From the IMG/VR virus record IMGVR_UViG_3300045988_123588: a stretch of 64,000 nt of DNA, one strand, 5' to 3'. The notes beneath the pieces are model-generated. The model ran no database searches, was not told where the DNA came from, and saw only the letters and a list, made by a program, of their open reading frames with translations. Positions 1,804 through 63,503 of the stretch are shown here, one piece after another; positions within the stretch are counted from its first letter, which is position 1; each line of letters opens with the position of its first letter. Position numbers and translations under genes: made by a program. The stretch comes from a virus.

Positions 1804-2495
1804 CCTTATATGAACTGATTCAACAGAGGGGTATAGAGGCTATTGGAAGGTTTTACTCTACTTACAGAGGTATAGTAATAACCTCAAATGACCCAGACTC
1901 TCAAAACAAGGTATGTGTACACCTTCCAAGTATCTTAAGAGGTGTAGAAGTATGGGCTTACCCAAAACACCAACAGGGAGGCCCAGGTTCTGGATTCAAA
2001 TGGTTGTCTCCCCGTGAGGGTTCTATAGTATACGTAGAATTTGAAAACGGAGACCCAAGACACCCTCTCTGGTCTTATCATGGATGGGCAATCGGAGAAA
2101 TGCCCCCAGAATTGGATAAGCCTAATGTATTGGGATTTATTACTCCTAAGGGTAATAAGATTATACTGGATGAAAGTGAATCGGGAATATTAACTGCAAT
2201 AATCCAACAAGATATAATTGTTAAGTCTCTAGACGGTAATATAAACGTCGATGCGAATAACATTATAATGCAAGGGGGAGAAGTTGGTATTCCTGAATCC
2301 AATTCAGTAGTGGAAAGATTAAACAAAATCGAGCAAGACCTAAATAAAATAAAGCAGACATTCACTAATTGGACACCTAAACCTCAAGACGGGGGTGCTG
2401 CTTTGAAAACTGCTGCTGCATCTTGGGCTGGTTCTAAACTGGAAGAGACTAAGGTGGAGGATATTGAAAGTGAAACAATTAAACAACCTAACTAA
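1800..2495 (+). CDS. baseplate central spike (P2 gpV / gp5 OB-fold-like)
   Basis: 231 aa; GSIVYVEFENGDPRHPLW resembles the gp5/VgrG/gpV OB-fold motif; ATGA start/stop overlap with upstream gene. Confidence 0.6.
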   Translation: MTLYELIQQRGIEAIGRFYSTYRGIVITSNDPDSQNKVCVHLPSILRGVEVWAYPKHQQGGPGSGFKWLSPREGSIVYVEFENGDPRHPLWSYHGWAIGEMPPELDKPNVLGFITPKGNKIILDESESGILTAIIQQDIIVKSLDGNINVDANNIIMQGGEVGIPESNSVVERLNKIEQDLNKIKQTFTNWTPKPQDGGAALKTAAASWAGSKLEETKVEDIESETIKQPN

Positions 2496-2971
2496 TGGCA
2501 AACTATAATCAACTCAACACTATTGGTAGTGGTGCCTATTTCCCTATAAAGCTTGAACAAGCAGTCGGGAGCGATGGGAAACCAGAATCAATACAGCTGC
2601 CAGACGGAAGAGTAGTACCAAAGATAGGATGGTATATACTCCGAGGAGATGTTGCTTTAATAAAGCAGAACCTCACAGCTATCCTAACCTATCAAATAGG
2701 CCAAAGGTTCAGACAAGAGGACTTTGGTTCTCGAACTTGGGAATGTTTGGAAGAACCTAATACAAGTGCTCTCAACCTCATGATTAAAAATTTCGTGAAG
2801 GATGGCATAGCAGCCTGGGAACCAAGGATAACGGCATTAAAGGTATTTGCTCTGAAACCCACTAAGGAATCTATAAGACTCCTGATATATTTCAAGGTGC
2901 AGAACTCTCAGAGGGTAGAAGAGTTAAACTTCCAGTATAACTTAAATAATTCCACAACAAATGTCTACTAG
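2495..2971 (+). CDS. baseplate wedge protein, GPW/gp25-like
   Basis: 158 aa; IGSGAYFPI ... YQIGQRFRQEDFGS pattern of the gp25/W family; position after spike. Confidence 0.7.
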   Translation: MANYNQLNTIGSGAYFPIKLEQAVGSDGKPESIQLPDGRVVPKIGWYILRGDVALIKQNLTAILTYQIGQRFRQEDFGSRTWECLEEPNTSALNLMIKNFVKDGIAAWEPRITALKVFALKPTKESIRLLIYFKVQNSQRVEELNFQYNLNNSTTNVY

Positions 2972-4736: not shown

Positions 4737-5619
4737 TCCAGCGAAGACATTCTTCAGGGATTACATCTTCAGTAACCTTTTTGACCATTACTACAAAGCC
4801 AATGATACTTATCAAGATTCAGAAGGCAAGGGTATATTCGAAAGGTTCATAGATGTATGTTCTGGCTATTTCGATACTGAGGTAATGCCCGATATAGATA
4901 ACTTCATGGAATGTTTGGATGTGGATAAAGCCAATCCTATATTCCTGAACTATCTATGGGAATACTTTGGGTTCATTCCTTATGCTTATGGCGTATTAAC
5001 TAAGGGAGAGCCCTATACAGAGGAGAATCTAGAGAATTGGATAAAAGAGGACAGGGGTTTTCCCACTGCGGATTACCGGTTAGTTCTAAGATACGCCATA
5101 TCTTTGTACAAGATAAGAGGTACTCGACGGTTTTATGAAATATTGGGCCGTTTTTACGGAGTGACCTTTACACTAACTGAAGTAGATGAAAGTACCAAAG
5201 CTTCGGTAGCTAAAGCTATAGGTGATGGTTCTGTAAACTATGACACTATCTCTCATTTCGATACTCCTTCAGCTACTTATGATACCGAGACAGATTGTTG
5301 GGAATGTGTCCCAATGATTCTTACTATTGGTATACCAAAGGGTCAGTGGGACTTTATGGTAAGGAAAGACCAAGAGATTCAAGAACAATTATTGGAAGAG
5401 TGGAAGTTGATGAATCCCGACGCAACCGAAGAAGAGATAGAGGCTGAAAGGGAATCGATACAATCAGAACATCCCTCTGACTATAGTGATAAAGTAAGGG
5501 AAACTCTGGTAAACATTGTCAATAAGTACCTACCCGTAAATGTAAAATATTTTGAACCAAAAGACAGTTCTGTAGTATTTGAACAAACTACTGCCGTAAT
5601 TTATATTGTATATGCTTAA
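4723..5619 (+). CDS. tail protein, P2 gpI-like
   Basis: 298 aa after the J-like gene; LRYAISLYKIRGTRRFYEILGRFYG resembles the gpI motif. Confidence 0.45.
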   Translation: MKWFNPAKTFFRDYIFSNLFDHYYKANDTYQDSEGKGIFERFIDVCSGYFDTEVMPDIDNFMECLDVDKANPIFLNYLWEYFGFIPYAYGVLTKGEPYTEENLENWIKEDRGFPTADYRLVLRYAISLYKIRGTRRFYEILGRFYGVTFTLTEVDESTKASVAKAIGDGSVNYDTISHFDTPSATYDTETDCWECVPMILTIGIPKGQWDFMVRKDQEIQEQLLEEWKLMNPDATEEEIEAERESIQSEHPSDYSDKVRETLVNIVNKYLPVNVKYFEPKDSSVVFEQTTAVIYIVYA

Positions 5620-6256
5620 CACACCTCTAATAGCTCTACTACTTTCTCTTGCTCAAGAAGACCCCAAACTAGACAATGCCGTTCAATCTTTAACCAAATC
5701 TTCGATTGAATTGGCTGAAGCTGCCTCAAATTATGGGGCACTTAAAGTGATATTCGGTATATTCATGGTATTGGTTCTTGTAATGGTAGTAATGTTTATA
5801 TATACCATCTGGAACTTAAATAAAAAGGTATCGGTAGTCTCTGAATCCTCTCAACAAGTGAAGGAGTTCTTCGATGGGGCCGCTGACTCTACCATTGGGA
5901 TAACTGAAGCTCAGATACTGATACGCAGAGAATTTAATTGCTTAGGACATATCCTTAAATATGCGATACTGCGTATACGATTTGAAAATCATATCGACAA
6001 CAAAGAGTCAGTCGTAAAGAAAGTAGATAGTTTGGTAAATAATGAGTATTCCGAACTATGTGGGATGCTATCAAACTTCACCTGTAATGGTAAATCTCTG
6101 GCAAATATCTTTGAGCCTCAAGATAATGAAGCAATAAAAGATATGGTAATTGAACAGATATATATACCAAAGGACCAATTTACAATTTCTAGTATGGACC
6201 AATCGGTTGGTATGTATCTAAACGGGTTAAAACTAATGTACCTTAAAAAATTATAG
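5606..6256 (+). CDS. membrane protein (one strong TM helix), possible holin or lysis accessory by position
   Basis: 216 aa; hydrophobic stretch VIFGIFMVLVLVMVVMFIYTIW; immediately upstream of the amidase. Confidence 0.45.
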   Translation: MYMLNTPLIALLLSLAQEDPKLDNAVQSLTKSSIELAEAASNYGALKVIFGIFMVLVLVMVVMFIYTIWNLNKKVSVVSESSQQVKEFFDGAADSTIGITEAQILIRREFNCLGHILKYAILRIRFENHIDNKESVVKKVDSLVNNEYSELCGMLSNFTCNGKSLANIFEPQDNEAIKDMVIEQIYIPKDQFTISSMDQSVGMYLNGLKLMYLKKL

Positions 6257-6258
6257 CT

Positions 6259-6885
6259 ATGGCACGAAGATTATTGCCTATCATTGACTTTGCGCACGGG
6301 TCAGATGTAGCGGGGAAACAATCTCCCGACGGTAGACATAAGGAATACCTGTGGAGTAGAAAAGTAGGTAAGATGTTGGCAGAACGTCTTAAACAAGAAG
6401 GATTTGAAGTAGCGTTCACCAATACTAAGGACACCGAAATTGGGCTGTCTAGAAGAAAAGAAATTGCAAATAATTTAGATACTCCCCGAGGGGGTGCAAA
6501 GTTTCTGCTTTCACTCCATAACAATGCTGCAGGTATGGGGAATGAATGGTGCGCTGCAAGGGGTTTTGAAATATATACCACCAAAGGACAAACTCGTTCG
6601 GATTTATTTGCCACGGTAATATTCGAACAATTACAGGAAGACTTTCCTACTACAGACGGTTATAAACATCGTATGGACCCATCAGATGGTGACCCTGATA
6701 AGGAAGCTAACTTCACAGTACTGATGGGCAACAACTACTGGGGAGTACTTCTCGAGTGGTTATTCCAGGATAACCCAGATGATGTGGCTTTACTTGAGGA
6801 TGACTCAGTAAATCACAAACTGGTGGAGTCATTAACCAAGGCTTTAATCTTCATAGATGAAAATCTTGATAAGTTAAAAATCTAA
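6259..6885 (+). CDS. N-acetylmuramoyl-L-alanine amidase (Amidase_3-type endolysin)
   Basis: IIDFAHGSDVAGKQSPDG and LSLHNNAAG match the IDPGHGGxDxG and SIHxNA motifs of Amidase_3. Confidence 0.75.
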   Translation: MARRLLPIIDFAHGSDVAGKQSPDGRHKEYLWSRKVGKMLAERLKQEGFEVAFTNTKDTEIGLSRRKEIANNLDTPRGGAKFLLSLHNNAAGMGNEWCAARGFEIYTTKGQTRSDLFATVIFEQLQEDFPTTDGYKHRMDPSDGDPDKEANFTVLMGNNYWGVLLEWLFQDNPDDVALLEDDSVNHKLVESLTKALIFIDENLDKLKI

Positions 6886-6887
6886 CT

Positions 6888-8717
6888 ATGGCACAGAATA
6901 ATGTAACTGAAGTAGTAAATGGGATAGTACAACCAAGATTCTATCAAGTCTATGGAGACTTAATAGAATCTAAAGAGGTTATGGAACCTCTTGCTATAAT
7001 GGCTGGTACAGGTCCTATTTGCGGCTTCGATTGGGTAGATACTACCCAACAGAACGTAACCATAACCAGTGTATTCAAAAGACCGGGTACATTACCTTCG
7101 GGAATGAGTAATATACTGGGCCGGGCTCGTAGAGTATTCCTTTCTAATAAGGATAATACTGCAGGCCAGGTGTTCAATGCTTACACTACTCCCGACGGAT
7201 TATGTCACATTGCCCCTGACGTACTAACCTTTAATGGAGTACAACCATCTGGAGGGTGGCCAAATCTGAGCAATCCTCAGAAGTTGGTAGCATTTGCTGT
7301 AAAAGCTACCCATACATATCGTCCAGATGGAAGTGAGAATCCTCCAAGTGTAACCAACTTCACCTGTGGTTGGTTAACATTTGACGATATATATGGTATC
7401 GAGGAAATTCTCTCTTGGGGATACGAGAGGATGTTAGAACTCCTGGCTGATTCAGGAATGCCTTTCAACAAGAATGTAGATTCTCTCATAGGAGTATACT
7501 TAGTTGGATGGAGACCCGAATGGAATAGTGACCCAAACAGTCAAAGATATAAGTCTATCATGGCTTCACTGAATTACACTTTGTGTTTGGTACCAACACA
7601 GGGTCAGTTCCCGGTGAAACCGTATGGGCTTAACCCTTTGGATATACTTGACCTCAAGAATAGGGTAAAGGTATTGGAACAGAGTACTATCCCTGTAGAA
7701 GTAGGTGATTTGACCGCTCAGGTATCAAACCTTATGAAATCCCTTGGTCAAGTAGTGGAAGTAGAAGTAACTAAAACTGGGTCCGATGGTGAAGACGATG
7801 TATATACATTTACTAAACTGAATGTTAACGGTTCAAAATTTGTCACGGACTCACCCATAGAAAAGAAACTTCACTGGCAATGGATTGAAGGTGCTGATGC
7901 CGCTGGTATATTTATATCTCCCGATATAGATATATCAAAACCAACTACAGTTCCTTCTAACAAGTGGGAGTTAGGTACAGTATTGTTTGGGATAAATGAG
8001 CAAGGGGCGATGATATATGAAAATATCAGTACTCCTTATCAACATGACGATTGGAAATTTGCTGGGTGTATCATGCTACAATTAAGCCCAAATGAAAACG
8101 ATTCTTCGTGTATCCCGACCGGATTTTATCATCCCACTAATCCCGATGCTGCTATGGGTTGGAGAATGGCTATTGCCATGAAGAGATTGATGGGTAGTAA
8201 GTCTATGTACTATGAGACTGCCGATAGTGGTCTGTTGAATTTCAACCCGAGTTCTGCAACTGACCATTATGCTTATGTAAAAGCTATAATGGGTGTAAAT
8301 ACTTTAACCTTGAGAGTAGTAGTATGCCTCTTGAATCAGGGTACAGCTAACGCATCTTTGAATTACAATTTGGCTATGTTATTCCAAAAAAATTCCAAGA
8401 TGAGTAGAATGATGGGCGAGATACTTAGGTTGAAGAATAATTCCGAGAGTATTACTCGCATATTCATGTCAATGCCAACTACTTTCAAAGCCAAAGATAT
8501 TGAACTAGAGTTGGCTGAGAATATGGATTGTGAGTTCCAAAAGTATTCTGCATATTTATCCATAGCTAACAACACAGCTAATATAGTGGTAAGTCTAAGG
8601 GGTATGACTAAGGCAACCGGAGCTCAAGAATATATCGAATTAGGTCATGAGATAACTATACCTATCCATGACATAACCGAGGATTTATATAATCGGACAT
8701 TATCTGGTGAAATGTAA
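6888..8717 (+). CDS. tail fibre / receptor-binding protein candidate
   Basis: 609-aa ORF, last gene of the baseplate operon, followed by a terminator; no motif recognised. Confidence 0.35.
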   Translation: MAQNNVTEVVNGIVQPRFYQVYGDLIESKEVMEPLAIMAGTGPICGFDWVDTTQQNVTITSVFKRPGTLPSGMSNILGRARRVFLSNKDNTAGQVFNAYTTPDGLCHIAPDVLTFNGVQPSGGWPNLSNPQKLVAFAVKATHTYRPDGSENPPSVTNFTCGWLTFDDIYGIEEILSWGYERMLELLADSGMPFNKNVDSLIGVYLVGWRPEWNSDPNSQRYKSIMASLNYTLCLVPTQGQFPVKPYGLNPLDILDLKNRVKVLEQSTIPVEVGDLTAQVSNLMKSLGQVVEVEVTKTGSDGEDDVYTFTKLNVNGSKFVTDSPIEKKLHWQWIEGADAAGIFISPDIDISKPTTVPSNKWELGTVLFGINEQGAMIYENISTPYQHDDWKFAGCIMLQLSPNENDSSCIPTGFYHPTNPDAAMGWRMAIAMKRLMGSKSMYYETADSGLLNFNPSSATDHYAYVKAIMGVNTLTLRVVVCLLNQGTANASLNYNLAMLFQKNSKMSRMMGEILRLKNNSESITRIFMSMPTTFKAKDIELELAENMDCEFQKYSAYLSIANNTANIVVSLRGMTKATGAQEYIELGHEITIPIHDITEDLYNRTLSGEM

Positions 8718-20713: not shown

Positions 20714-20787
<74 letters not shown>

Positions 20788-20864
20788 CTTATGAATCTTT
20801 ACTTTGCGCTGTGGACAACGAGTCCTGATTCATTCCCAGGTACTGGACGGTAGTGATATAGACT

Positions 20865-20874
20865 GGTACCTAAT
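20865..20874 (+). repeat. GGTACCTAAT 10-mer, copy 4 of 4, 2 nt upstream of tRNA-Pro
   Basis: Identical 10-mer at 49911-49920, 50484-50493 and 51467-51476. Confidence 0.8.
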
Positions 20875-20876
20875 TT

Positions 20877-20951
20877 ACGGAAGTAGCACAGTCCGGTCAG
20901 TGTACTTGCTTTGGGAGCAAGGGGTCGCAGGTTCGAATCCTGTCTTCCGTA
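20877..20951 (+). tRNA. tRNA-Pro(TGG): tRNA-Pro (anticodon TGG)
   Basis: 75 nt: acceptor ACGGAAG/CTTCCGT, anticodon stem CTTGC/GCAAG, loop TTTGGGA, T-arm GCAGG-TTCGAAT-CCTGT. Confidence 0.85.
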
Positions 20952-21062
20952 CAAGGGCTATATGCTGGGTCATAACAGGAGATACGACCTCCAGCTAGCA
21001 ATGGGCAATAACCTGGTACGAGATACCAAAACCCATAATTAAAGTCGAAGGCTATAGCTTTA

Positions 21063-21100
21063 GGAGATGAGCGAAGAACAGTACCTCATCTCCCCTTTTG
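21063..21100 (+). terminator. hairpin plus T-run just upstream of tRNA-Leu (terminator or processing structure)
   Basis: GGAGATGAG...CTCATCTCC followed by CCTTTTG. Confidence 0.4.
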
Positions 21101-21105
21101 TAAAG

Positions 21106-21191
21106 GCTCGGATGGTGAAATAGGTAGACACGCCGGACTTAAAATCCTGTGACCAGCAATGGTCGTGCGGGTTCGATTCCCGCTCCGAGTA
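21106..21191 (+). tRNA. tRNA-Leu(TAA): tRNA-Leu (anticodon TAA), class II long variable arm
   Basis: 86 nt: acceptor GCTCGGA/TCCGAGT, loop CTTAAAA, variable arm GACCAGCAATGGTC, T-arm GCGGG-TTCGATT-CCCGC. Confidence 0.8.
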
Positions 21192-21206
21192 CAAAATACC
21201 CTGAAC

Positions 21207-49994: not shown

Positions 49995-50006
49995 ATATAT
50001 AATATA
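49995..50006 (+). repeat. ATATATAATATA 12-mer (also at 50353-50364, 50702-50713)
   Basis: Three identical AT-only 12-mers in the low-coding region. Confidence 0.8.
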
Positions 50007-50056
50007 CATACCTATATATCATTCATTAAGGGAATATATAATCATCAATCATATAT

Positions 50057-50113
50057 GGCTTTTAGGATTGGCTTTTATCTTAGAGGCCTTTTATTTATGT
50101 GTTAGGTTAGGGC
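50057..50113 (+). repeat. degenerate 40-55 bp unit GCTTTTAG..AGGCCTTTTAT(A/T)T..TTA(A)GG, copy 1 (copies 2 and 3 at 51205-51245 and 51251-51301)
   Basis: ggcttttaggattggcttttatcttagaggccttttatttatgtgttaggttaggg compared with cgcttttagtggcttggcttataggccttttatattatatgataaggtacc and cgcttttaggggcctttttatattggtatatggttaaggccc. Confidence 0.6.
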
Positions 50114-50696
50114 AAAAGTTAACAGGCAGTCGATGATAAGGTTCAGATATCCAAAGAATCGAAGGGCCATAAAATCGGGGTGAGGAAAAATTTTGGTTAA
50201 GGCAAGGATAGGGGCCAACTGTGTACCTTATGAGCTCTGGAGCTATCTATGTTACTATACGTATTAGCTAAGTCGACTTAGGGCCCTAAGACCAGGGGGA
50301 AGGCCCTAAAAGGCACCTTAAAGGTACCCAAACCCCTACCTTAATCAAGTCTATATATAATATATTAAGTATATCAGGATTGAGGTTAAGGTCCCTAGCT
50401 AAGGCCTTTTCGATAAAGAGACATTAGGCCCTCTGACTCTTGATATCTACAGCTTGACTCTCTATTCAGATTGGTACACTGATGGTACCTAATGAAGGCC
50501 TTAACCCTAAGCCTTAAAGAATACAGTCTATATATATATGCGAGTCTTTTAAGTGATTTTGGAACAGGTGTCTAAAATCGATATGCCAGGAATAGAGTAT
50601 TGGAGATTTGATTTCTCAAGTTAAGGCTTAGTTAAGGCACATTTAGGGTACCTTTTAAGACCATAAACTACCATAAAGGTAGGCCTTAAAGAATTA

Positions 50697-50728
50697 TTTG
50701 CATATATAATATATTATGATTATATTTG
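50697..50728 (+). promoter_or_regulatory. Bacteroidota-type promoter (-33 TTTG, 20 nt, -7 TATATTTG)
   Basis: TTTGCA at 50697, TATATTTG at 50721-50728. Confidence 0.65.
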
Positions 50729-50770
50729 TATAACGAAAAAGAAATAATAAACCCTAATACTAATAAGGCC

Positions 50771-50932
50771 ATGAAAAGAATCAGAAAGGTAATCCTAATA
50801 TCCCTACTCTTAATAATGGGATTCACTATTGGAGCTTTGGTCACAATATATACTCAAGAGGTATATAACCATCCTAATGTAAAAGAAGCCTTTGAGGTCA
50901 AGGCCTTTGGTCAATACTTTATATACGAATAA
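50771..50932 (+). CDS. small membrane protein (53 aa)
   Basis: Start moved to MKRIRKVILISLLLIMGFTIGALVTIY (ATG after TAAGGCC). Confidence 0.45.
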   Translation: MKRIRKVILISLLLIMGFTIGALVTIYTQEVYNHPNVKEAFEVKAFGQYFIYE

Positions 50933-50951
50933 CTATTAAAATCCTAAAGCC

Positions 50952-51176
50952 ATGCTTAATTCTAAAGACTTTACCACTGCCCTGGAAATTATCTCCAAAC
51001 ATCATTCAACCGAATTGGCAATCAATACTCCTAACAATAACTTTGTAGGGTATATGGGCCAGACTGAATTCAGGTTGCATATTAAGAAATGCGTGCCCTC
51101 TGTAATCAATAAACTGATTCAGGCAGGGTATACCCTTAATATGGGACCTGAAGGTTTGGAGGTTGATAAGATTTAA
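50952..51176 (+). CDS. hypothetical protein
   Basis: 74-aa ORF. Confidence 0.45.
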   Translation: MLNSKDFTTALEIISKHHSTELAINTPNNNFVGYMGQTEFRLHIKKCVPSVINKLIQAGYTLNMGPEGLEVDKI

Positions 51177-51755
51177 CCTTCATTTGCTTTCAAGGTTGGG
51201 CCTCGCTTTTAGGGGCCTTTTTATATTGGTATATGGTTAAGGCCCTATATCGCTTTTAGTGGCTTGGCTTATAGGCCTTTTATATTATATGATAAGGTAC
51301 CTTTATGGTACCTACCCAAGGCCTATTCTTTTATTATATTATATGGGAATGAATGCAATATAGGTATATCATAATGCAAGCAGGGGCATATCATAGAAAC
51401 TTAAGACTTACGGAATATAAGTTTACTTGTTTATAAAACTAAGAACTTCTAGATTATGAAAGGCAAGGTACCTAATCCATAAGCCAACCCTGGGAACTTC
51501 AGGCTGAAAAGAAAGGCAGTGTATGGTAGGAGCTAAGGCCATAATTCATTTCGGACATATAAGACCTAACCCAGGAGCTAAGACCAATTTAAGAACCGAA
51601 CATTAAGACCTTCTATTAGAACCTTCTTTCTGGTGCCCTGATGGTGCCAAGAAGGCCAAGAAAGCAATTCCCATGCCAAGAATGTCCCGGAATAGCTCCC
51701 AGAAAGTTTTATGAAAATAAATGCTCCCGAGGCCACCAATTATAAATATTTGTTG

Positions 51756-51763
51756 TATATTTG
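51756..51763 (+). promoter_or_regulatory. -7 box TATATTTG without a well-spaced -33
   Basis: TATATTTG 52 nt upstream of the ATG at 51816. Confidence 0.4.
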
Positions 51764-51815
51764 TAATACAGAAAAGAACTAATAAAAGTTAAACCAATTA
51801 AAAATTTTTACTATT

Positions 51816-52256: not shown

Positions 52257-52406
52257 CTGCAAGGACTTTTTGGGCTCCTCGCATTAAGCTCCTCCTGAAA
52301 GGTACATGCCACATGGGTACATAACCCCATCCCCCTCTCCATACACAAAATGAAGAACCCATCTAAAGGCTCTTCATAAAATTTTTCCAGGATATTTTTA
52401 GGGCTC

Positions 52407-52808
52407 CTATTGTAAGGCCTCTGCCTTAACCCTATATATCCCTATCAGTTTATCAAATGCTTTAATCCTTGATTCTATATCAAGCCTATCCCACCAATAT
52501 ATTTCCCGAATAGAAAGGTTATCATTAAGACCTTTATAGGCTTCAGTATTCTTGTCACCACCCAGGAAATCAAAGTTAAACTCAGGTATCAGGATAGTCA
52601 ACCAATCTGGACTATACATTACCTCTCCCTCATAGGTACATAAATCATGGCCCATCTCTCTCAGTATGAGGACTAAGTTATCCATCAGATCCCTATGTCT
52701 ATATACAGCTTTCTTAAAGGCATTGCACATACCTTTACCATATTTCCAACATTCCTTGGCATACTTTATCCAAGCCAAGATAACCTTATCCTTATCTACT
52801 TGTTCCAT
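52407..52808 (-). CDS. hypothetical protein
   Basis: 133-aa ORF, last gene of the minus-strand block. Confidence 0.5.
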   Translation of the reverse strand: MEQVDKDKVILAWIKYAKECWKYGKGMCNAFKKAVYRHRDLMDNLVLILREMGHDLCTYEGEVMYSPDWLTILIPEFNFDFLGGDKNTEAYKGLNDNLSIREIYWWDRLDIESRIKAFDKLIGIYRVKAEALQ

Positions 52809-52811
52809 AGG

Positions 52812-53000
52812 TTATAATAAAATGAGGATTGTAAGAAAGCAAACCAGAATGCAAAATATTCCAAATATAAATAACTCACCTAATATTTGAAGATATTTTC
52901 TAGAAGTATTGCCTAAGATTGAAAGGATAAGCCCTATTATTCCTATTAAGAAAGTAATTCCTATGGTTATCCAAAGGCATATAAATAAATTATGAATCAT
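52812..53000 (-). CDS. small membrane protein
   Basis: 62 aa, two hydrophobic helices. Confidence 0.45.
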   Translation of the reverse strand: MIHNLFICLWITIGITFLIGIIGLILSILGNTSRKYLQILGELFIFGIFCILVCFLTILILL

Positions 53001-53050
53001 AAGCTTTAGTTTTAAGGATATAGACTTGGGATAATCGTTTCGGTATCAAG

Positions 53051-53091
53051 CTATACACACAATAAGAGGGACCCAATCAAAGAGTCCCTCT
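53051..53091 (-). terminator. terminator of cassette P1
   Basis: Minus strand: AGAGGGAC...GTCCCTCT followed by TATTGTGTGT. Confidence 0.55.
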
Positions 53092-53099
53092 ACTAAATA

Positions 53100-53507
53100 C
53101 TAAATATCTGCCAGGTTGATAACAGGATTCATACTCATACTCAGGTTAACGGTATCAACCTGCTGAGCATAGTCATCTGTGGGCATAAATATACCACTTC
53201 TTTTAACGTATATATTCACTATTCTTAAGTCGAAGTTAATGTCAAAAGATGGGAACCCAATTATATGCACTCCCTCTGGGAAAGTCGGACTTTGGGAAGC
53301 CGTTAAATCCATGACCAGTTTAATACCATCTATTCTACCTTCTATTAAGTCAGTGATTATCTGTTTGAGTACACTGACTTCGGTAACAAATCCAATGTAG
53401 GCCCAGTTTGGGTTAGTAGACTTGTTGTTTTCAAGTTTGATTTCTGCGAATTTCATATCATCTTCGATTATAGGTACATTACCTTGGTGAAATAAAAATA
53501 AACTCAT
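53100..53507 (-). CDS. FH(S/Q)xNVP-family protein P1
   Basis: Start moved to MSLFLFHQGNVPIIEDDMKFAEIKL to match its paralogues. Confidence 0.6.
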   Translation of the reverse strand: MSLFLFHQGNVPIIEDDMKFAEIKLENNKSTNPNWAYIGFVTEVSVLKQIITDLIEGRIDGIKLVMDLTASQSPTFPEGVHIIGFPSFDINFDLRIVNIYVKRSGIFMPTDDYAQQVDTVNLSMSMNPVINLADI

Positions 53508-53523
53508 ATCGTATGGTTTATGG

Positions 53524-53556
53524 ATTAAAAGTATATCACTATGATATACTTTTAAT
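53524..53556. promoter_or_regulatory. perfect palindrome upstream of P1
   Basis: ATTAAAAGTATATCA-cta-TGATATACTTTTAAT, 16 nt from the start codon. Confidence 0.75.
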
Positions 53557-53562
53557 GACGTA

Positions 53563-53610
53563 ATGTACACACAACAAAGCCCAGTAGAAACCTATAAACT
53601 ACTGGGCTTT
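53563..53610 (-). terminator. terminator of cassette P2
   Basis: Minus strand: AAAGCCCAGTAG...CTACTGGGCTTT followed by GTTGTGTGT. Confidence 0.65.
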
Positions 53611-53614
53611 ATTT

Positions 53615-54034
53615 TTAATCTATATTCCAATAAAAACCGTCCACTGGTGAACATGTAACTATTTCTCGGTTACCAGGTAAACTGTCAATAGTTATCTGTT
53701 GTATGATTTGGTCTCCGTTTTTACTCAGTACAGCAAACATAACCATTCCAAGTACCACCCTATTAGAATCTCTAAGGTTAATATAAATCGGTGGGTATAT
53801 GTACCCATACTTGTCCATCTCTCCGCTATTTTGAAGGGCTTTGTTATCGAATATCACTCTTACAGCATCTACCTTACCGTCGATGATATCCTGGGTTAAT
53901 TGTTGGGTCTCTTCTTCCGTGGATTGGAATTCGAACCCATTCCAATCTGTACTGGCTATTTTCAAATCTCTGACTACCATATCTTCATTTAGTGTGAAAG
54001 GCACATTGCCTGAATGAAACATTAACAAACTCAT
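53615..54034 (-). CDS. FH(S/Q)xNVP-family protein P2
   Basis: MSLLMFHSGNVPFTLNEDM... Confidence 0.6.
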   Translation of the reverse strand: MSLLMFHSGNVPFTLNEDMVVRDLKIASTDWNGFEFQSTEEETQQLTQDIIDGKVDAVRVIFDNKALQNSGEMDKYGYIYPPIYINLRDSNRVVLGMVMFAVLSKNGDQIIQQITIDSLPGNREIVTCSPVDGFYWNID

Positions 54035-54053
54035 AAGTTGTAAGGTTTATTGG

Positions 54054-54082
54054 TAAGAGTATATCTCTAAGATATACTCTTA
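54054..54082. promoter_or_regulatory. perfect palindrome upstream of P2
   Basis: TAAGAGTATATCT-cta-AGATATACTCTTA, 19 nt from the start codon. Confidence 0.75.
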
Positions 54083-54091
54083 GGTGACCTA

Positions 54092-54129
54092 CTCACACAA
54101 AAATACCCAACTAAATTAGCTGGGTATTT
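54092..54129 (-). terminator. terminator of cassette P3
   Basis: Minus strand: AAATACCCA...TGGGTATTT followed by TTGTGTGAG. Confidence 0.6.
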
Positions 54130-54140
54130 GAGTTGTATAG

Positions 54141-54581
54141 TTATTCTACCGTTTCCATGGTAATGGTTCCTGTAGAGGAAATAGTGATACATTGTATTGA
54201 CCTGTATGAACCATCTCCTTGACCTTTTACAGGTAATTGCCACGAAGTTGTACTTCTTAATACCGGTATACACGGTAAGTAGATATTTATACTACCAGGT
54301 ACTTGATAGTTACTGATATTCATAACAATACCTATGGTATCTACTTCATACAATTTACTACCATTACTAGTTGACCGTCCCCTTATGATAGGGATCACTG
54401 GCTCAGCATCATTAGCTGAAGCAGTCCTTACCAAAAGGTCGAAAGCTTGTTTACCAGTCATACCCAGTACAGAGTTAAATACTGGATACTCTCCCTGTTC
54501 CATGGGCAGGTCCACTAAAAAAATTATCGGCTTCATATTTTCCAAGATTTGTAATACATTCTGTGAGTGAAATCCTAACAT
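54141..54581 (-). CDS. FH(S/Q)xNVP-family protein P3
   Basis: MLGFHSQNVLQILENMK... Confidence 0.6.
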   Translation of the reverse strand: MLGFHSQNVLQILENMKPIIFLVDLPMEQGEYPVFNSVLGMTGKQAFDLLVRTASANDAEPVIPIIRGRSTSNGSKLYEVDTIGIVMNISNYQVPGSINIYLPCIPVLRSTTSWQLPVKGQGDGSYRSIQCITISSTGTITMETVE

Positions 54582-54613
54582 AGTTTTTGGTGTTAAGGTC
54601 CTTATATACGCAT

Positions 54614-54641
54614 AAAAGTATTTCTTCTAAGAAATACTTTT
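54614..54641. promoter_or_regulatory. perfect palindrome in the divergent P3/P4 intergenic region
   Basis: AAAAGTATTTCTT-ct-AAGAAATACTTTT; 32 nt from the P3 start and 25 nt from the P4 start. Confidence 0.75.
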
Positions 54642-54666
54642 ACCATTAAACACATACAATACAGCT

Positions 54667-55071
54667 ATGTTAGGATTCCATTCTCAAAATGTACCAATCA
54701 CAATAATAGAAGATGATATGAAGTTTGCAAAGTTACCATTACCAACTAATGACATTGGGAGTTGGAGAAAAGATGCTCTTTCTACTGCTCAGCTAATAAG
54801 CATCTACACTCAGGCTAAAAATGAACAGATAGATGGAGTCATGATAGTGGATAGTATTGACTATGGCGGTCAATATGAACAAAGAGCCATATCCACTGGA
54901 TTAAGGGTCAACCCTAACGAAGTACGATTTGACTTCAACTATGGTCATACCACAGAAGATGGTCAAGCTATCGGCAGAGGTTTTGTCAACGACGACCAAA
55001 CCACAGCTATATACAGAGTTATAATTACAAGTGCTGGAGTACTAACCTATAGTTACACTTCGTTGGAATAA
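54667..55071 (+). CDS. FH(S/Q)xNVP-family protein P4 (inverted orientation)
   Basis: MLGFHSQNVPITIIEDDMKFAKLPL... Confidence 0.6.
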   Translation: MLGFHSQNVPITIIEDDMKFAKLPLPTNDIGSWRKDALSTAQLISIYTQAKNEQIDGVMIVDSIDYGGQYEQRAISTGLRVNPNEVRFDFNYGHTTEDGQAIGRGFVNDDQTTAIYRVIITSAGVLTYSYTSLE

Positions 55072-55084
55072 AAAAAAACGCTAA

Positions 55085-55115
55085 ATAGGAGGTCAGTAAA
55101 TATCTGACCTCCTAT
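55085..55115. terminator. bidirectional terminator between convergent genes
   Basis: ATAGGAGGTCAG-taaatat-CTGACCTCCTAT followed by TATGTGTG. Confidence 0.7.
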
Positions 55116-55133
55116 TATGTGTGATTATATTTA

Positions 55134-55448
55134 CTACTTTTGGTCTGGTTCTTTGACCTTAGCCTTTTGTTTGAAGTAGAACTTGGTTTCTACGAAAAGA
55201 TAGGGGTATTCCTTATTTTCGGGGTCATACACCAAAGTATAATCTACCCCTCTAACGTTGGCTTTCATGTAATGAAACTTTCTCCAGGCTTTATCATTGA
55301 GATTTTTGATGACTTGTTCAAAAGAACGTACAAAACCAACTCTCTTCCTTAGGTACTTCTTTGTTCTACCAACTTCTTGGTAAAACATTTCTTCTATTAC
55401 TCCACCAGCAGCATAAAACTGACCCGGAGTATAAACTTTTACTGCCAT
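55134..55448 (-). CDS. hypothetical protein
   Basis: 104-aa ORF. Confidence 0.5.
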   Translation of the reverse strand: MAVKVYTPGQFYAAGGVIEEMFYQEVGRTKKYLRKRVGFVRSFEQVIKNLNDKAWRKFHYMKANVRGVDYTLVYDPENKEYPYLFVETKFYFKQKAKVKEPDQK

Positions 55449-55461
55449 ATAGATATTTTGA

Positions 55462-55812
55462 TTAAGGTTCCCAAATGTCGAATGTTTGACCTTGAGCTGT
55501 AGTTATTCTTAATGAATAATGTTCTCTTACTACCCTTAGCTTAGTAAAGGTTAGGTCATGTTTACGGTATACATACTCCTCTAAGGATGATATCTCATTT
55601 TCAATATTGCCCTTTAATTGACCACTGAACTTTTGGGTGAACCCTTGAGTAAGATTATTTATCTTTCCAGTGAGTTTATCCCGTAAAAGGGAAGGAATAT
55701 TCCCGTCTATGATTACTTTCTCTATATAAGCATCCCAAACAGGAATAGATTGCTTCTCTTCATCACTGGCTTTCCTCAAGATTATTTCAATGTCGTTTAA
55801 TTCTATTATCAT
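55462..55812 (-). CDS. hypothetical protein
   Basis: 116-aa ORF. Confidence 0.5.
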   Translation of the reverse strand: MIIELNDIEIILRKASDEEKQSIPVWDAYIEKVIIDGNIPSLLRDKLTGKINNLTQGFTQKFSGQLKGNIENEISSLEEYVYRKHDLTFTKLRVVREHYSLRITTAQGQTFDIWEP

Positions 55813-56047
55813 TCTTGAAAAGAATTTTGAATGTTAGTATTAACAATCCGGTTATTACTGCAGGACTAACTGCCCATATTAGAAATAAAACTCCATACCT
55901 TACCTTATTAGAGGCTTTCTTAAGAGGAGTTTCTTCTACTACACTGTAGATAAACAAGCAGAAAATAAATCCGAGAGTGTAGAATACTAAAAGGGTATAA
56001 CCCAACCAAGCCGGAGTGGGATTAGCAGTCATCAGGATATCAGACAT
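55787..56047 (-). CDS. small membrane protein
   Basis: 86 aa, 2-3 TM helices. Confidence 0.5.
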   Translation of the reverse strand: MSDILMTANPTPAWLGYTLLVFYTLGFIFCLFIYSVVEETPLKKASNKVRYGVLFLIWAVSPAVITGLLILTFKILFKNDNRIKRH

Positions 56048-56235
56048 GAGATGATTATTATGATGGTAATACAGATTATGAATGTTTGAATAGTTTCTTT
56101 CTTACCTTTGGACCAAGATTCGTTACCATCATACTCTTTATCAGCTTCTTTAATAGCTTTCCAAGTCATACCTCCACAATATGCAGAGTAACTAATAACG
56201 TTGACTGTAATCCAATGTAGTAAGAAACGTATCAT
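56032..56235 (-). CDS. small membrane protein
   Basis: 67 aa, TM helices at both ends. Confidence 0.45.
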   Translation of the reverse strand: MIRFLLHWITVNVISYSAYCGGMTWKAIKEADKEYDGNESWSKGKKETIQTFIICITIIIIISCLIS

Positions 56236-56546
56236 TTTCCTTCTATTTTTTCTATAATACGACTGATTTTGGCAGCGGCATACCTGATTATATCAGGATT
56301 TTCAATCCCTTTCTTGTTGATGGCAGCCAATTTCTCCAAATCACGGTTTAAAGTTCTCTGTGCTACCAGAGTTTTATACTTTTCTTCGTTAAAAACCTCA
56401 ATTTGATATTTAGAATTGATAGGACGAAGAGTCCGGTCAGTCTTAATACCATTGTCGAGGGTGTAGATTCCCTTTTTCCTCTCTTTAATAGCCGTCTTTT
56501 CAAAGAAGGCAGGGCCTGTTACCAGTAGTAAATCACCAACTTTCAT
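56232..56546 (-). CDS. hypothetical protein
   Basis: 104-aa ORF. Confidence 0.5.
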   Translation of the reverse strand: MKVGDLLLVTGPAFFEKTAIKERKKGIYTLDNGIKTDRTLRPINSKYQIEVFNEEKYKTLVAQRTLNRDLEKLAAINKKGIENPDIIRYAAAKISRIIEKIEGK

Positions 56547-56628
56547 GAGTTTTGTTATTATTTTAATGCAATATTATATAGTTTTCGCAAGACCTTCCGG
56601 TATATATTATATAAATCTATTTTCTCGG

Positions 56629-57156
56629 TTAGTTAGATAGCCTTTTTATGATTCTACGTATACATTCATTACCAACTTTGAACTTTTTAGATATGTAACC
56701 AGTAGTTTTACCCTGATTATGTAGATTAAATACCTCTATTTCTTGTTCTTTGGTTAGTTTTGACCAGGGGTTTAGATATCCAAATTTGCCCTTACCAGGA
56801 TTATTCTCATGAGTAAACAGAGTAGTCAATCTATTTTCACGTAAAGCCTGTTGGATGTTCATTTTCTGAGTTCCCCAATATAAATTCTCTACATGATTGT
56901 TCAATGGGTTATTATCCCTATGACACACACATGGATATTTATTAGGGTTTGGTATATAAATCATGGCTACCAATCGAGAAACGGAGAAATGACGGTCTAT
57001 CTTATTAGTAACGTACAACCTAACTCGATAAGATTTTCTATTACCTCGAGTTACAATCTTAAATTTTCTTAATTTCCAACCCTTAGTTTTGGTAAATCTA
57101 TATACTTTACCATCTTTAGTTACATGGTATGGTAAGTCAAACACATTAGCTTTCAT
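56629..57156 (-). CDS. HNH homing endonuclease (free-standing)
   Basis: VCHRDNNPLNNHVENLYWGT HNH core plus a C-terminal helix-turn-helix-like tail (GYISKKFKVGNECIRRI). Confidence 0.75.
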   Translation of the reverse strand: MKANVFDLPYHVTKDGKVYRFTKTKGWKLRKFKIVTRGNRKSYRVRLYVTNKIDRHFSVSRLVAMIYIPNPNKYPCVCHRDNNPLNNHVENLYWGTQKMNIQQALRENRLTTLFTHENNPGKGKFGYLNPWSKLTKEQEIEVFNLHNQGKTTGYISKKFKVGNECIRRIIKRLSN

Positions 57157-58958: not shown

Positions 58959-60467
58959 ATGGCAAGAAAGAAGACATTAGTTGAAGATGCAAGTCTTACA
59001 CCTGAACAACTTAAGACATTGGTTCGGGTGATGAAAGACCCTTTCTTCTTTTCTACTTTCTGCTACGTGATAAACCCAGTGTTGGGTATGGTAAAGTTCT
59101 TGCTCTACCCTTTTCAAAAGGCAGTGCTATACCAATTCATGCTCAACAGGTTCAATATCATCCTAAAGTTTCGTCAGGCTGGTATTACTGAGCTAATCTC
59201 CCTCTACTGTCTTTGGTTAGCAATGTATCATCCTAACAAGAAGATAAACATTATCTCAATCAAGGACACCGTAGCAAAGAAAGTACTGAAGAAGATTAAG
59301 TTCATGTACAAGAATCTACCCTCATATTTGCAAGAGCCTATCATAAATGGTCGTGCAGGGGAGTTTGGTTCTGTATCAACTATAGAGTTTGCAAATGGTT
59401 CTGTAATAGAATCTATTCCAACCTCTGACCAAGCTGGTCGTTCTGAATCTTTGTCGTTGTTAGTGATTGATGAAGCAGCAATCGTAAGATGGGCTTCAAC
59501 TATCTGGGCATCAGCCTTCCCTACTCTGTCCACTGGTGGTGCTGCTATAGTAAACTCAACCCCGTATGGAGTAGGTAACTTCTTTCACGGTACTTGGGTA
59601 GATGCTATATCTGGGGGTAACCCATTCAATCCCATTAGATTGTATTGGCAGATGCACCCCGACAGAGATGAGAAATGGTATGAAGAGATGTCTGCTGCTT
59701 TGGGACCCAAGAGAACTGCTCAGGAGATAGATGGTGACTTCTTATCATCTGGTAATACAGTATTCGACTTAGCTGATATAAAGGCTATAGAAGAATGTTT
59801 ATTCGACTATCCCGTTATCAATACTCGTCTCAAAGGTCAGTATAAAGAGTTCAATGAACCAGACCCGAACAAAGAATACTTTATCGGTGGTGACTGTGCT
59901 ACTGGTAGAGGTACAGACTACTCGGCTTTCACCTGTATGGATAAAGAGGGAGAAGAGGCTGCAGTATACAAGGGTAGGATACCTTTGAATAAGTATGCCC
60001 GTTTACTTGGCGATATTGGAGAGAAGTATAACTTTGCTAAGTTAGCTCCTGAGACCAATGACGTTGGTATGACAGTGACTACCATACTTCAGGATGAGGG
60101 TTATCCAAATCTTTACTTCTATACTAAGCTCTTACGTAAGAAGAGGAAGAACAGACCTGAGGAAGATAAGTTCCCGGGATGGTTAACTACAACCAAGAAC
60201 CGTTCTGTAATCATCGAGAACTTAGAGAAGGATATTAGGGAAGAGAACGTAATTGTAAAAGACCCATTCTTCGTACAAGAAGCATACACCTTTATATACG
60301 ACGGTGCCGGAAGACCCATTGCTCGTGGTAAGCATAGAATGAATAATTCATCAATGGACCTGGATTTGGAAGGTGAAACCTATTCGGATGATGCGATATT
60401 CGGTAAAGCTATCACCAATCATATCAGGTCTCATAGTCCATCTGGTACTGTAGTAATTCCTCAGTAA
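58959..60467 (+). CDS. terL: terminase large subunit
   Basis: 502 aa; FRQAGITELIS, Walker-B-like LLVIDEAA, nuclease-domain IGGDCATGRGTDYSAF; followed by a portal-size ORF. Confidence 0.85.
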   Translation: MARKKTLVEDASLTPEQLKTLVRVMKDPFFFSTFCYVINPVLGMVKFLLYPFQKAVLYQFMLNRFNIILKFRQAGITELISLYCLWLAMYHPNKKINIISIKDTVAKKVLKKIKFMYKNLPSYLQEPIINGRAGEFGSVSTIEFANGSVIESIPTSDQAGRSESLSLLVIDEAAIVRWASTIWASAFPTLSTGGAAIVNSTPYGVGNFFHGTWVDAISGGNPFNPIRLYWQMHPDRDEKWYEEMSAALGPKRTAQEIDGDFLSSGNTVFDLADIKAIEECLFDYPVINTRLKGQYKEFNEPDPNKEYFIGGDCATGRGTDYSAFTCMDKEGEEAAVYKGRIPLNKYARLLGDIGEKYNFAKLAPETNDVGMTVTTILQDEGYPNLYFYTKLLRKKRKNRPEEDKFPGWLTTTKNRSVIIENLEKDIREENVIVKDPFFVQEAYTFIYDGAGRPIARGKHRMNNSSMDLDLEGETYSDDAIFGKAITNHIRSHSPSGTVVIPQ

Positions 60468-61976: not shown

Positions 61977-63503
61977 ATGTCAATGACTCAGCAGAACACC
62001 GATGTAATGGTGTTAAGTGCAGCTCATAGCTTGATGGTATCAGATGTGCCAGAAATAGTTATAGATGCTCACTCTCTTTCTGAAAACTTCTATAAGGGCA
62101 CTGGCAACTTCAGTGAAGACCCTAAGAAGTCACTGGAAAGGTTTGGTATGTGGGGAGGCACTTTGAATGTCAACCAGTTCATGCCAGAAGTAACTCCAGA
62201 AATGTTAAAACCCAAGGACAGTGACTTTATAGAGCCAATGTTCAGAATGCTTTCTGCCGCAATAGTGGCAAGGAAGTATAATCCCACTGAGTTTCCAGAA
62301 GCAGTACTGAAGGAATCTATGCCCTTATTGGTAGGTCAATCAGTTAATCTTGACCATGAGACTGATGTGGCTAATGCCATTGGAGCAGTTAAGTCTGTAG
62401 AGTGGCAAGAAGCTTATAAGGATGAAAAGACTGGGATAATTATCCCTGCTGGTATCAATGGTATCCTGAAGATAGACGGTCTTTCAAATCCTCGTATAGC
62501 TCGTGGTATTCAAATGGACCCTCCGTCCATACACTCTAACTCTGTAACTGTAGAGTTTGCATGGGAACCATCTCATGTCTTTGAAGATATATGGGAGTTC
62601 TATTCTAAACTTGGTACCTATACCGAGAATGGAGAGTTAATTCGTAGGGTTGTTACCAAGATTATATCTTATAAAGAGACATCTCTGGTATGGCATGGGG
62701 CAGACCCGTTTGCCCAGCTTATCAAAAGCGGTAAATTAAACAGCCCTGCTTATGCAGGAAGTCAGTACTATTCTTTCTCTGAAGAAAAAGCTGCCGAAGC
62801 AAATGACCCAGCAAAGAGGGTATCTATGTTCGACTTCAAGGTTCTTTCTGAAAAAGATATAAAGTACAATACCACCCAATCTAATAATGAAAAGGGTGCC
62901 GGAAAGGGTAACCACAATAACCAAACAAATAAAACAAACATGGACAAAGAATTGCAGCAAGTGCTAGCGAGCCTCTTTGGTGAAAATCTTTTGACCCTTT
63001 CTGAAGGTCAGGAAGTTTCGACAGAGCTGGCTCTCACCCAGATTAAAAACCTGGTACAGCAGAATCAGAGCCTCACAAATGACGTGGCTACCAAAGACAC
63101 TGAGATTCAGACTCTCAAGGAAGAGAAAGCAAATCTCGAGAAAGACGTAGAGTCTTACAAGGAAGCAAAGAAAAACTGGGACGGTCATATCAAATCCTTC
63201 CGTGAGGAAACGGTGGCTGCCTACAAGAAAGTTTCCGGCGAGGAGAATGTAGACCAGAATATCCTGGCACTACTGGAGAACGAAGGAACTACCATGGAAA
63301 CTCTCAGTGCTCTGCGTAAAACTTATGACGCACAGCTGGAAGACAAATTCCCGATGCACTGCAACCATTGCGGTTCTCAGGACGTGGGCCGGGCATCTTC
63401 TATAAATCCCGAGGGAGAAGATGAGACGAAGAACGGAGATAAGTCCACTAAGGCAGTTGCCCAAGCTCTGGCTGACCGGAAACTCCGAGGAGAAAAGAAA
63501 TAA
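61977..63503 (+). CDS. prohead protease - scaffold fusion
   Basis: N-terminal LVGQSVNLDHETDVANAIG resembles the HK97-type protease motif; C-terminal coiled-coil (LTNDVATKDTEIQTLKEEKANLEKDVESYKEAKK). Confidence 0.5.
   Translation: MSMTQQNTDVMVLSAAHSLMVSDVPEIVIDAHSLSENFYKGTGNFSEDPKKSLERFGMWGGTLNVNQFMPEVTPEMLKPKDSDFIEPMFRMLSAAIVARKYNPTEFPEAVLKESMPLLVGQSVNLDHETDVANAIGAVKSVEWQEAYKDEKTGIIIPAGINGILKIDGLSNPRIARGIQMDPPSIHSNSVTVEFAWEPSHVFEDIWEFYSKLGTYTENGELIRRVVTKIISYKETSLVWHGADPFAQLIKSGKLNSPAYAGSQYYSFSEEKAAEANDPAKRVSMFDFKVLSEKDIKYNTTQSNNEKGAGKGNHNNQTNKTNMDKELQQVLASLFGENLLTLSEGQEVSTELALTQIKNLVQQNQSLTNDVATKDTEIQTLKEEKANLEKDVESYKEAKKNWDGHIKSFREETVAAYKKVSGEENVDQNILALLENEGTTMETLSALRKTYDAQLEDKFPMHCNHCGSQDVGRASSINPEGEDETKNGDKSTKAVAQALADRKLRGEKK

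Follow-up and report, generated by a model that had tools for sequence, protein, structure and literature searches.

The stretch of DNA described here (64,000 nucleotides, called the window below) comes from IMG/VR virus record IMGVR_UViG_3300045988_123588, an uncultured tailed phage from the human gut with a genome of about 79 kb, most of which is contained in the window. It carries an array of four small paralogous genes, P1 to P4 (Table 1), each forming a cassette with the elements that flank it. Their products start with a short common N-terminal peptide, the leader, which is followed by strongly diverged bodies. We put at about 0.55 the probability that this is an array of accessory genes with their own promoter-like element and terminator, shuffled by recombination and encoding diversifying effectors with a common docking or targeting peptide. 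The reading is based on the repeated regulatory elements around the genes, on the different conservation of leader and body and on the variable number of cassettes in related phages.

In the proposed mechanism, each cassette would be a self-contained expression unit, in which a cassette-specific dyad element precedes one small gene, ending in a GC-rich hairpin with a TGTGTG tail. Each protein is made up of two parts under opposite selection, a constant N-terminal peptide and a fast-diversifying, acidic alpha/beta body. The leader would act as a handle by which all paralogues dock to one and the same partner, its most likely use being loading into the virion, as for the internal proteins of phage T4. 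The bodies would be arms-race effectors, active against defence or in host interaction and directed at different targets. Through homologous recombination the array grows, shrinks, inverts and forms chimeras, with crossovers at the conserved leader codons, the dyad elements, an IDG motif in the middle of the genes and the terminator hairpins. The sequences show the cassette architecture and its polymorphism, the junctions of recombination, the pattern of selection and, by structure prediction, a leader lying outside the fold; a docking role, packaging and an effector function are inferred.

The cassette units

Nearly all genes of the window are located on the plus strand; the array sits inside a leftward block (52407–57156) composed of small genes of unknown function and a gene for an HNH endonuclease. 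An initial annotation had described four open reading frames (ORFs) of 134–146 amino acids (aa), had quoted their N-termini and had noted that P4 is inverted. The ORF translations agree with the quoted N-termini, and P4 lies on the plus strand, with P1 to P3 on the minus strand. The lengths also stand after one correction, P1 being 135 aa long with its start at 53507, as fixed from homologues such as P0034. The exact P1 protein is present on 22 public contigs. The cassette proteins are acidic, with isoelectric points (pI) of 4.3–5.1.

Table 1. Location of the cassette genes, of the elements flanking them and of the adjoining gene (window positions).
Feature	Position	Strand	Description
Cassette gene P1	53100–53507	-	ORF, 135 aa, begins MSLFLFHQGNVPIIEDDMK
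Cassette gene P2	53615–54034	-	ORF, 139 aa, begins MSLLMFHSGNVPFTLNEDM
Cassette gene P3	54141–54581	-	ORF, 146 aa, begins MLGFHSQNVLQILENMK; most divergent body
Cassette gene P4	54667–55071	+	ORF, 134 aa, begins MLGFHSQNVPITIIEDDMK; inverted, divergent from P3
P1 terminator-like hairpin and tail	53056–53091	-	stem 53065–53091, TTGTGTG 53056–53062; -18.1 kcal/mol
P2 terminator-like hairpin and tail	53566–53613	-	stem 53573–53613, GTGTGT tail; -22.6 kcal/mol
P3 terminator-like hairpin and tail	54094–54129	-	stem 54101–54129, TTGTGTG 54094–54100
P4 terminator-like hairpin and tail	55084–55127	+	stem 55084–55116, ATGTGTGATTA tail; -25.8 kcal/mol
Dyad element 1	53524–53556	.	ATTAAAAGTATATCA-N3-TGATATACTTTTAAT; 16–19 nt upstream of P1 ATG
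Dyad element 2	54054–54082	.	TAAGAGTATATCT-N3-AGATATACTCTTA; 20 nt upstream of P2 ATG
Dyad element 3	54613–54642	.	TAAAAGTATTTCTT-N2-AAGAAATACTTTTA; 32 nt from P3 ATG, 25 nt from P4 ATG
104-aa basic protein	55134–55448	-	pI 9.7, adjoins array; possible partner (lead)

The stop codon of each cassette gene is followed, within 1–12 nt, by a GC-rich hairpin (-18 to -26 kcal/mol, z -4.5 to -9.3) and then by (T)TGTGTG. Such a hairpin and tail had been claimed for each copy and are found after all four, the tail of P4 reading ATGTGTG. The sequence of the hairpin stem differs between cassettes. TTGTGTG as such shows no enrichment in the window (five copies found, 6.3 expected), and three of the five abut cassette hairpins. 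The P4 stem has a T-run on the minus strand, and therefore also closes the leftward operon that ends with the gene for the 104-aa protein. By their sequence, the cassette units look individually insulated.

In the leftward block, tails of alternating T and G (TTGTGTG or TTTGTGTA) are located at 53052–53062, 53566–53574, 54094–54100 and 55117–55127, and a further one is present at 52342–52349 (minus strand), after a hairpin at 52350–52377. Genes of the plus strand have hairpins followed by plain T-runs, unlike the T/G tails of the leftward block. In divergent relatives the T/G tails are kept, though the stems differ.

Upstream of the genes, the pattern AGTATWTC-N3-7-GAWATACT has exactly three matches in the 64 kb, for 0.01 expected, and all three dyad copies are perfect palindromes with arms of 13–15 nt. 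The initial annotation had given every copy an upstream palindrome of its own, which is correct for P1 and P2 only: the divergent pair P3 and P4 uses one element jointly, so that there are three dyad elements for four genes. Folded as RNA, element 1 has a free energy of -13.8 kcal/mol (z -7.8); element 2 differs from it by one symmetric A:T to G:C change. In related phages, all cassettes with enough upstream sequence have a dyad element 13–35 nt before the ATG, which is imperfect (a hybrid) only at the divergent pair of locus L007. A single cassette lacked a dyad element in the scan, being located near the start of its locus with its upstream sequence not covered, and none of the loci without cassettes has one. 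Over 19 distinct variants, dyad symmetry is kept at 96.8% of positions, a level reached in none of 500 shuffles, and changes in both arms are seen at three positions (A:T to G:C, A:T to T:A and T:A to A:T). The symmetry fits a dimeric DNA-binding protein or a hairpin, and the element could be a promoter, an operator or a 5′ hairpin. The claim that the whole unit of palindrome, gene and terminator was duplicated is strengthened by comparison with at least 60 related loci.

Constant leader and divergent body

The leader comprises the N-terminal 12–17 residues common to all paralogues, in which a hydrophobic residue is followed by F-H-x-x-N-V-P, an acidic (I/L)xE(D)D stretch and an invariant methionine. 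In P1 to P4, the F, H, N and V residues and the methionine near position 17 are invariant, and the (I/L)xE triplet is located at residues 12–17 in all four copies and in most subtypes. Between the window paralogues, sequence identity amounts to 38–69% in the leader and 10–19% in the body. All distant subtypes, representing about ten body types, retain the leader. For the six FHxxNV codons, the proportion of synonymous differences (pS) is 0.7–1.2 and that of non-synonymous differences (pN) 0–0.34, the pair P1/P3 being an exception with a pS of 0.15; P3 and P4 agree in all six residues and differ by four synonymous changes. The leader is kept by selection on the peptide and not on the DNA. With synonymous sites close to saturation in codons whose peptide is preserved, recent gene conversion was rejected as the cause of leader identity, and so was a signal at the nucleotide level.

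The ratio of non-synonymous to synonymous substitution rates (dN/dS) within subtypes is 0.06–0.23 for the leader. Over whole genes it is 0.53 for P4, 0.48 for P1, 0.34 for P3b and 0.17 for P2, and several 15-codon windows of the body reach 1.1–1.4. The variable positions form patches, for example in the loop after the first strand.

The codon of the invariant methionine that ends the leader is found at 53457–53459, 53984–53986, 54534–54536 and 54715–54717 (protein positions 16–18), and the residue is invariant across all subtypes. Gene callers often pick this internal methionine as start, hence the 117-aa "P4" entries on many contigs; these were rejected as truncated proteins. Internal initiation at the same methionine, giving a leaderless isoform, is conceivable. 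Among the other ORFs of the window the leader is not found. Residues 20–31 of a fusion of protease and scaffold-like sequences (61977–63503, plus strand) contain, at residue 23, SDVPEIVID, faintly like the leader sequence NVPIIEDD; this was set aside as a lead only, because by a rough estimate about one chance match is expected in the 19,332 residues scanned.

The bodies had been said to diverge almost completely. This description fits P3, for which a profile comparison with the other paralogues is not significant (P=0.1–0.17), but not P1, P2 and P4. BLASTP aligns P1 and P2 with E=2e-10 over 73 aa and P1 and P4 with E=2e-7 over 65 aa, and the profile comparison, which excluded the leader and natural chimeras, gives P=1e-4 for P1 and P2 and P=2.6e-3 for P1 and P4 over about 100 collinear columns. 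An IDG(I/V) motif and a carboxy-terminal DDxxQxIxxITIxSxG motif are common across the alignment. By these alignments P1, P2 and P4 have weakly homologous bodies, and at least part of the set consists of divergent homologues and not of unrelated cargo.

An AlphaFold2 model of P1, made from an alignment of 53 sequences, consists of an alpha/beta body with a mean predicted local distance difference test score (pLDDT) of 82 and a predicted template modelling score (pTM) of 0.75. Residues 1–11 are unplaced, with pLDDT values below 50. The model of P3 has a pLDDT of 49, too low for use in a structure search, and the order of secondary structure elements in its amino-terminal half is the same as in P1. 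The initial annotation had considered that the N-terminal identity might be just part of a common globular fold; in the confident P1 model the leader is predicted to lie outside it. A Foldseek search of the PDB with this model gave nothing significant (best E-value 0.68), a sequence profile search of the PDB gave no match, and scans of P1 to P4 and their neighbours against Pfam, PHROGs, PADLOC and NCBIfam gave no family match. As far as can be judged from the model, the cassette family has no recognisable fold. Other Foldseek matches, to tail and tail-fibre proteins of crAss-like phages, are weak and non-significant (E-values 0.15 and 0.44). In BFVD, the only marginal matches are to A0A8S5QK49 and A0A8S5QKS5, uncharacterised proteins of about 120 aa of one uncultured phage, Siphoviridae sp. 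ctCUc43 (E-values 9e-4 and 1e-2, TM-scores 0.42–0.45), which may be a distant paralogous pair of a similar kind.

Distribution, polymorphism and recombination

A profile of the four proteins retrieved 2952 proteins, all of 114–158 aa, unnamed and without Pfam domains. An exhaustive profile search of 1.84 billion representative proteins yielded no more than 36 clusters, comprising about ten body types at full length. No member is present in 185,579 species-representative genomes, and a prophage or bacterial origin was rejected on this basis. Synteny places the cassette genes of divergent relatives at an equivalent position. Only one lineage of gut phages of about 79 kb carries the family; these look like phages that infect Bacteroidota.

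The comparison of related phages for gain and loss of cassettes, proposed with the initial annotation, was carried out on 38 complete IMG/VR loci, anchored on a flanking gene found in all relatives. The number of cassettes ranges from none to four (0 in 18 loci, 1 in ten, 2 in four, 3 in four and 4 in two). MT121964, a relative of 75.5 kb with a portal protein 92% identical, has no cassettes. The body type of P4 is the one retained in single-cassette relatives.

The array occurs as two isomers, the first of which corresponds to the window. The second is inverted between the leaders of P1 and P4 and encodes proteins with P4 leader and P1 body, and with P1 leader and P4 body. MT835790 contains a decayed form of the inverted isomer, with one cassette and pseudogene remnants of the carboxy-termini of P1 and P2. 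Remnants of lost cassettes are retained in L001. A natural chimera (P0076 and L003) joins the amino-terminal half of P2 to the carboxy-terminal half of P1, with the crossover at the IDG motif. The L007 palindrome has arms from two different alleles, and the empty site of L037 consists of a single hairpin resembling the P1 terminator stem.

The four possible exact leader-swap chimeras between the P1 and P4 alleles of this phage are absent from 15 billion proteins, whereas the native alleles are present on 2–22 contigs or more; the absence of exact chimeras is negative evidence only. Among the PHROG families listed for the 82 window ORFs there is no integrase, invertase or reverse transcriptase, a result that refers to the best 25 of 43 families, listed for 62 of the 82 ORFs, and to 64 kb of the genome of about 79 kb. 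Programmed inversion was rejected given the lack of a recombinase among these families and of exact chimeras, and a diversity-generating retroelement given the lack of a reverse transcriptase among them. We conclude that the rearrangements arose in the course of evolution by ordinary homologous recombination, in which short conserved stretches paired, and not by a programmed switch; the UvsX-type machinery of the phage probably drives the process. Judged by the compared loci, the array is dispensable and recombination-driven.

The gene for the basic 104-aa protein is present in 20 of 20 complete cassette-bearing loci and in 9 of the 18 cassette-less ones; cassettes never occur without it. The protein has no family match in the library scans. 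It could be a binder of the dyad element, a partner of the leader, or simply linked.

Candidate functions, known systems and genomic setting

The proposal of recombination-shuffled effectors with a common docking or targeting peptide has to be set against several observations that weigh in the other direction. The cassette genes are located in the leftward block of small accessory genes, outside the head module. The leader is unique to one family in the window, while the T4 targeting sequence spans several unrelated head proteins, and in two subtypes the (I/L)xE triplet is absent, with IGD in P0133 and LNG in L010. Part of the high dN/dS could come from relaxed constraint and not from diversifying selection. 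A fold common to all four proteins is not proven, because the P3 model is of low confidence. Near the dyad element, a promoter scan and inspection revealed no recognisable sigma-70 or clear Bacteroides -33/-7 boxes, so that promoter function is an assumption.

T4 internal proteins differ widely among themselves, and their common feature is only the capsid-targeting sequence (PMC3012670). The initial annotation had been reminded of them, and part of the likeness stands. Like IPI, IPII and IPIII of the polymorphic T-even internal-protein locus, the cassette proteins are small, dispensable and diverse, with a short conserved N-terminal leader in common; the locus is polymorphic between close relatives; a glutamate-containing (I/L)xE follows the leader in most members, similar to the (L/I)xE site of the T4 prohead protease; and the bodies are plausibly engaged in an arms race (PMC3012670). 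The likeness does not extend to sequence or fold, as there is no PHROG, Pfam or PDB match, with the IPI* structure being in the PDB. Unlike in T4, distant homology links at least three of the four bodies, and the leader is confined to one family. The T4 leader is MKTYQEFIAE, compared with FHxxNVP here. The host phylum and the phage lineage are also different. By analogy, packaging of P1 to P4 into virions like T4 internal proteins is plausible.

In a strict T4 analogue, the leader would bind the scaffold or protease core and be removed by the prohead protease at (I/L)xE, and the bodies would be ejected with the DNA and neutralise host defences. A short, conserved and unstructured leader followed by (I/L)xE, the dispensability and hyperplasticity of the locus, small, acidic and fast-evolving bodies, the T4 precedent (PMC3012670) and a head-maturation protease of this phage with a fused scaffold-like coiled-coil tail all agree with this. 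We nevertheless hold it to be rather doubtful: neither with the T4 internal proteins nor with the sequence that targets them is any homology seen, sequence searches with the protease gave no family assignment beyond PHROG 8158, and the missing glutamate in two subtypes, the restriction of the leader to one family in the window and the position of the genes outside the head module all count against it. A wider version, also no more than tentative, is that an internal-protein-like system evolved independently in a lineage infecting Bacteroidota. There, FHxxNVP with its acidic (I/L)xE would load swappable effectors into the virion or onto a hub protein, and plug-and-play units would be shuffled, inverted and recombined by the recombination machinery of the phage itself, even within the coding sequence, leading to new effectors.

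The proteins might instead act in the cytoplasm, outside the virion, in host interaction or anti-defence, with the leader as a short linear motif for one conserved host or phage partner and the bodies recruiting or blocking different targets. Several features speak for this: the location in an accessory block, with an HNH endonuclease and a cytosine methyltransferase as neighbours; a regulatory element dedicated to the cassettes and absent from the rest of the window; acidic, dispensable proteins with high dN/dS; and the neighbouring gene for the 104-aa basic protein in every cassette-bearing locus. The co-occurrence may reflect linkage, however, since nine cassette-less loci have the 104-aa gene; no match to a known anti-defence or defence family was obtained, and we regard this explanation as possible but on balance improbable, about as likely as the strict T4 analogue.

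Capsid-decoration proteins of the phage lambda gpD type have an N-terminal arm that is disordered until bound and an exposed domain. The cassette proteins would have the same layout, with a variable domain of about 120 aa, if they were modules of the virion surface (capsid decoration or small adhesins), anchored by the arm at a fixed capsid or tail site while the exposed body diversifies. Hypervariable loops within subtypes and the non-significant Foldseek matches to crAss-like tail proteins would go with this idea, which includes the adaptor-docked receptor-binding module suggested initially, but no fold match to a decoration, fibre or receptor-binding protein was found. The receptor-binding suggestion in particular finds little support, as the proteins are small predicted alpha/beta monomers, encoded far from the tail and baseplate genes (157–8717) and on the opposite strand, and are absent in 18 of 38 related loci, so they are not an essential receptor-binding protein. 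Surface modules are thus unlikely.

Very improbable is that leader and dyad are kept chiefly as signals in DNA or RNA, used either to start translation or as recombination sites for a shufflon-like switch or programmed inversion, with a functionless peptide. Inversions with breakpoints in the leader codons do recur among relatives, a hybrid palindrome exists and dyad symmetry is preserved through two-sided changes; the near-saturated synonymous sites of a leader whose peptide is kept, the lack of an invertase or integrase among the families listed and the absence of exact chimeras of alleles that are themselves on many contigs contradict it. Like the tail-fibre segments switched by Mu Gin and P1 Cin and the R64 shufflon, the array combines a conserved N-terminal segment with alternative variable parts, has copies in inverse orientation and has natural isomers that differ by inversion between conserved segments. 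Unlike in those systems, the copies are full genes, each having a start and regulatory elements of its own, inversion just swaps near-identical leaders, and signs of ongoing switching are not seen, the exact leader-swap chimeras being absent. Shufflons, Gin/Cin and Bacteroides invertons also differ in that no site-specific serine or tyrosine recombinase is among the families listed here. An integron gene cassette is a promoterless ORF with an attC site, accompanied by the IntI integrase and attI. Here, no integrase is among the families listed, a conserved dyad is located upstream, beside the ATG, and the downstream hairpins have no attC-like core in common.

Promoter-plus-stem-loop (PeSL) cassettes mediate the shuffling of orphan ORFs in the hyperplastic regions of T4-type phages (PMC2839356, PMC4122927). 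As in PeSL cassettes, conserved motifs with stem-loops, here putatively regulatory, flank the orphan ORFs on both sides: a dyad upstream, as candidate promoter, and a stable hairpin downstream, as candidate terminator, are found for every cassette in every locus examined. Insertion, deletion and replacement also take place between near-identical phages, with junctions inside the motifs (0–4 cassettes, the hybrid palindrome of L007, the hairpin of the empty site and the remnants in L001), and both rely on efficient homologous recombination of the phage (PMC2839356, PMC4122927). The differences are that the upstream motif here is a perfect palindrome with 13–15-bp arms (TAARAGTATWTC-N-GAWATACTYTTA) without recognisable sigma-70 boxes, which does not match the PeSL consensus (sigma-70 -35/-10 and a GGGG...CCCC stem), and that the terminator stems are heterogeneous, with only the TGTGTG tail in common. 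Unlike in PeSL, the cassettes are paralogues, and therefore recombination also occurs inside the coding sequence, at the leader and at the IDG motif, leading to chimeric proteins and inversions. From its sequence features, the locus resembles a blend of a T-even internal-protein locus and PeSL cassettes but is a member of neither.

Hardly any accessory locus of a gut phage has been characterised, and the array offers a clean, testable handle on such loci. It extends promoter-and-terminator cassette shuffling beyond T4-type phages, with recombination inside the coding sequence shown to create chimeric proteins. The strongly selected peptide of 12–17 residues could be a targeting or docking tag, comparable to the T4 capsid-targeting sequence as used in protein delivery, and the approximately ten diverged body types are a good place to look for novel functions in anti-defence or host interaction among the Bacteroidota. 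The natural series of 0, 1, 2, 3 and 4 cassettes in otherwise near-identical phages provides ready isogenic comparisons. Interest in the locus is moderate as found and would rise if packaging or a defined partner were demonstrated.

The phage is lytic, and its window has a GC content of 38%. No cultured relative was found in the phage collection searched. We infer a host belonging to the Bacteroidota, because all but 4 of 58 genes lack a Shine-Dalgarno-like motif. PHROG matches in the window include a baseplate wedge subunit, a DnaB-like helicase, a DNA polymerase, a terminase, a portal protein and the head protease (PHROG 8158, the protease–scaffold fusion mentioned above), as well as a UvsX-like recombinase, SbcCD and RusA; an exonuclease is also encoded. 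The cytosine methyltransferase gene adjoins the leftward block.

Three phage tRNAs (Met-CAT, Pro-TGG and Leu-TAA) are located at 20714–21192 on the plus strand, in the replication module; they are the only Rfam matches in the window, with none at the array. The region 50000–51800, just upstream of the strand switch, contains few long ORFs and is dense in AT-rich palindromes and terminator-like hairpins; it may have a regulatory function or be origin-like. In several relatives (L003 1–1641, L033 11145–13640 and L001 6964–9459) the large terminase is 831 aa long and matches intein-splicing, NUMOD4 and HNH_3 domains, corresponding to an intein or homing endonuclease insertion; the terminase of the window (58959–60467) is uninterrupted and has 502 aa.

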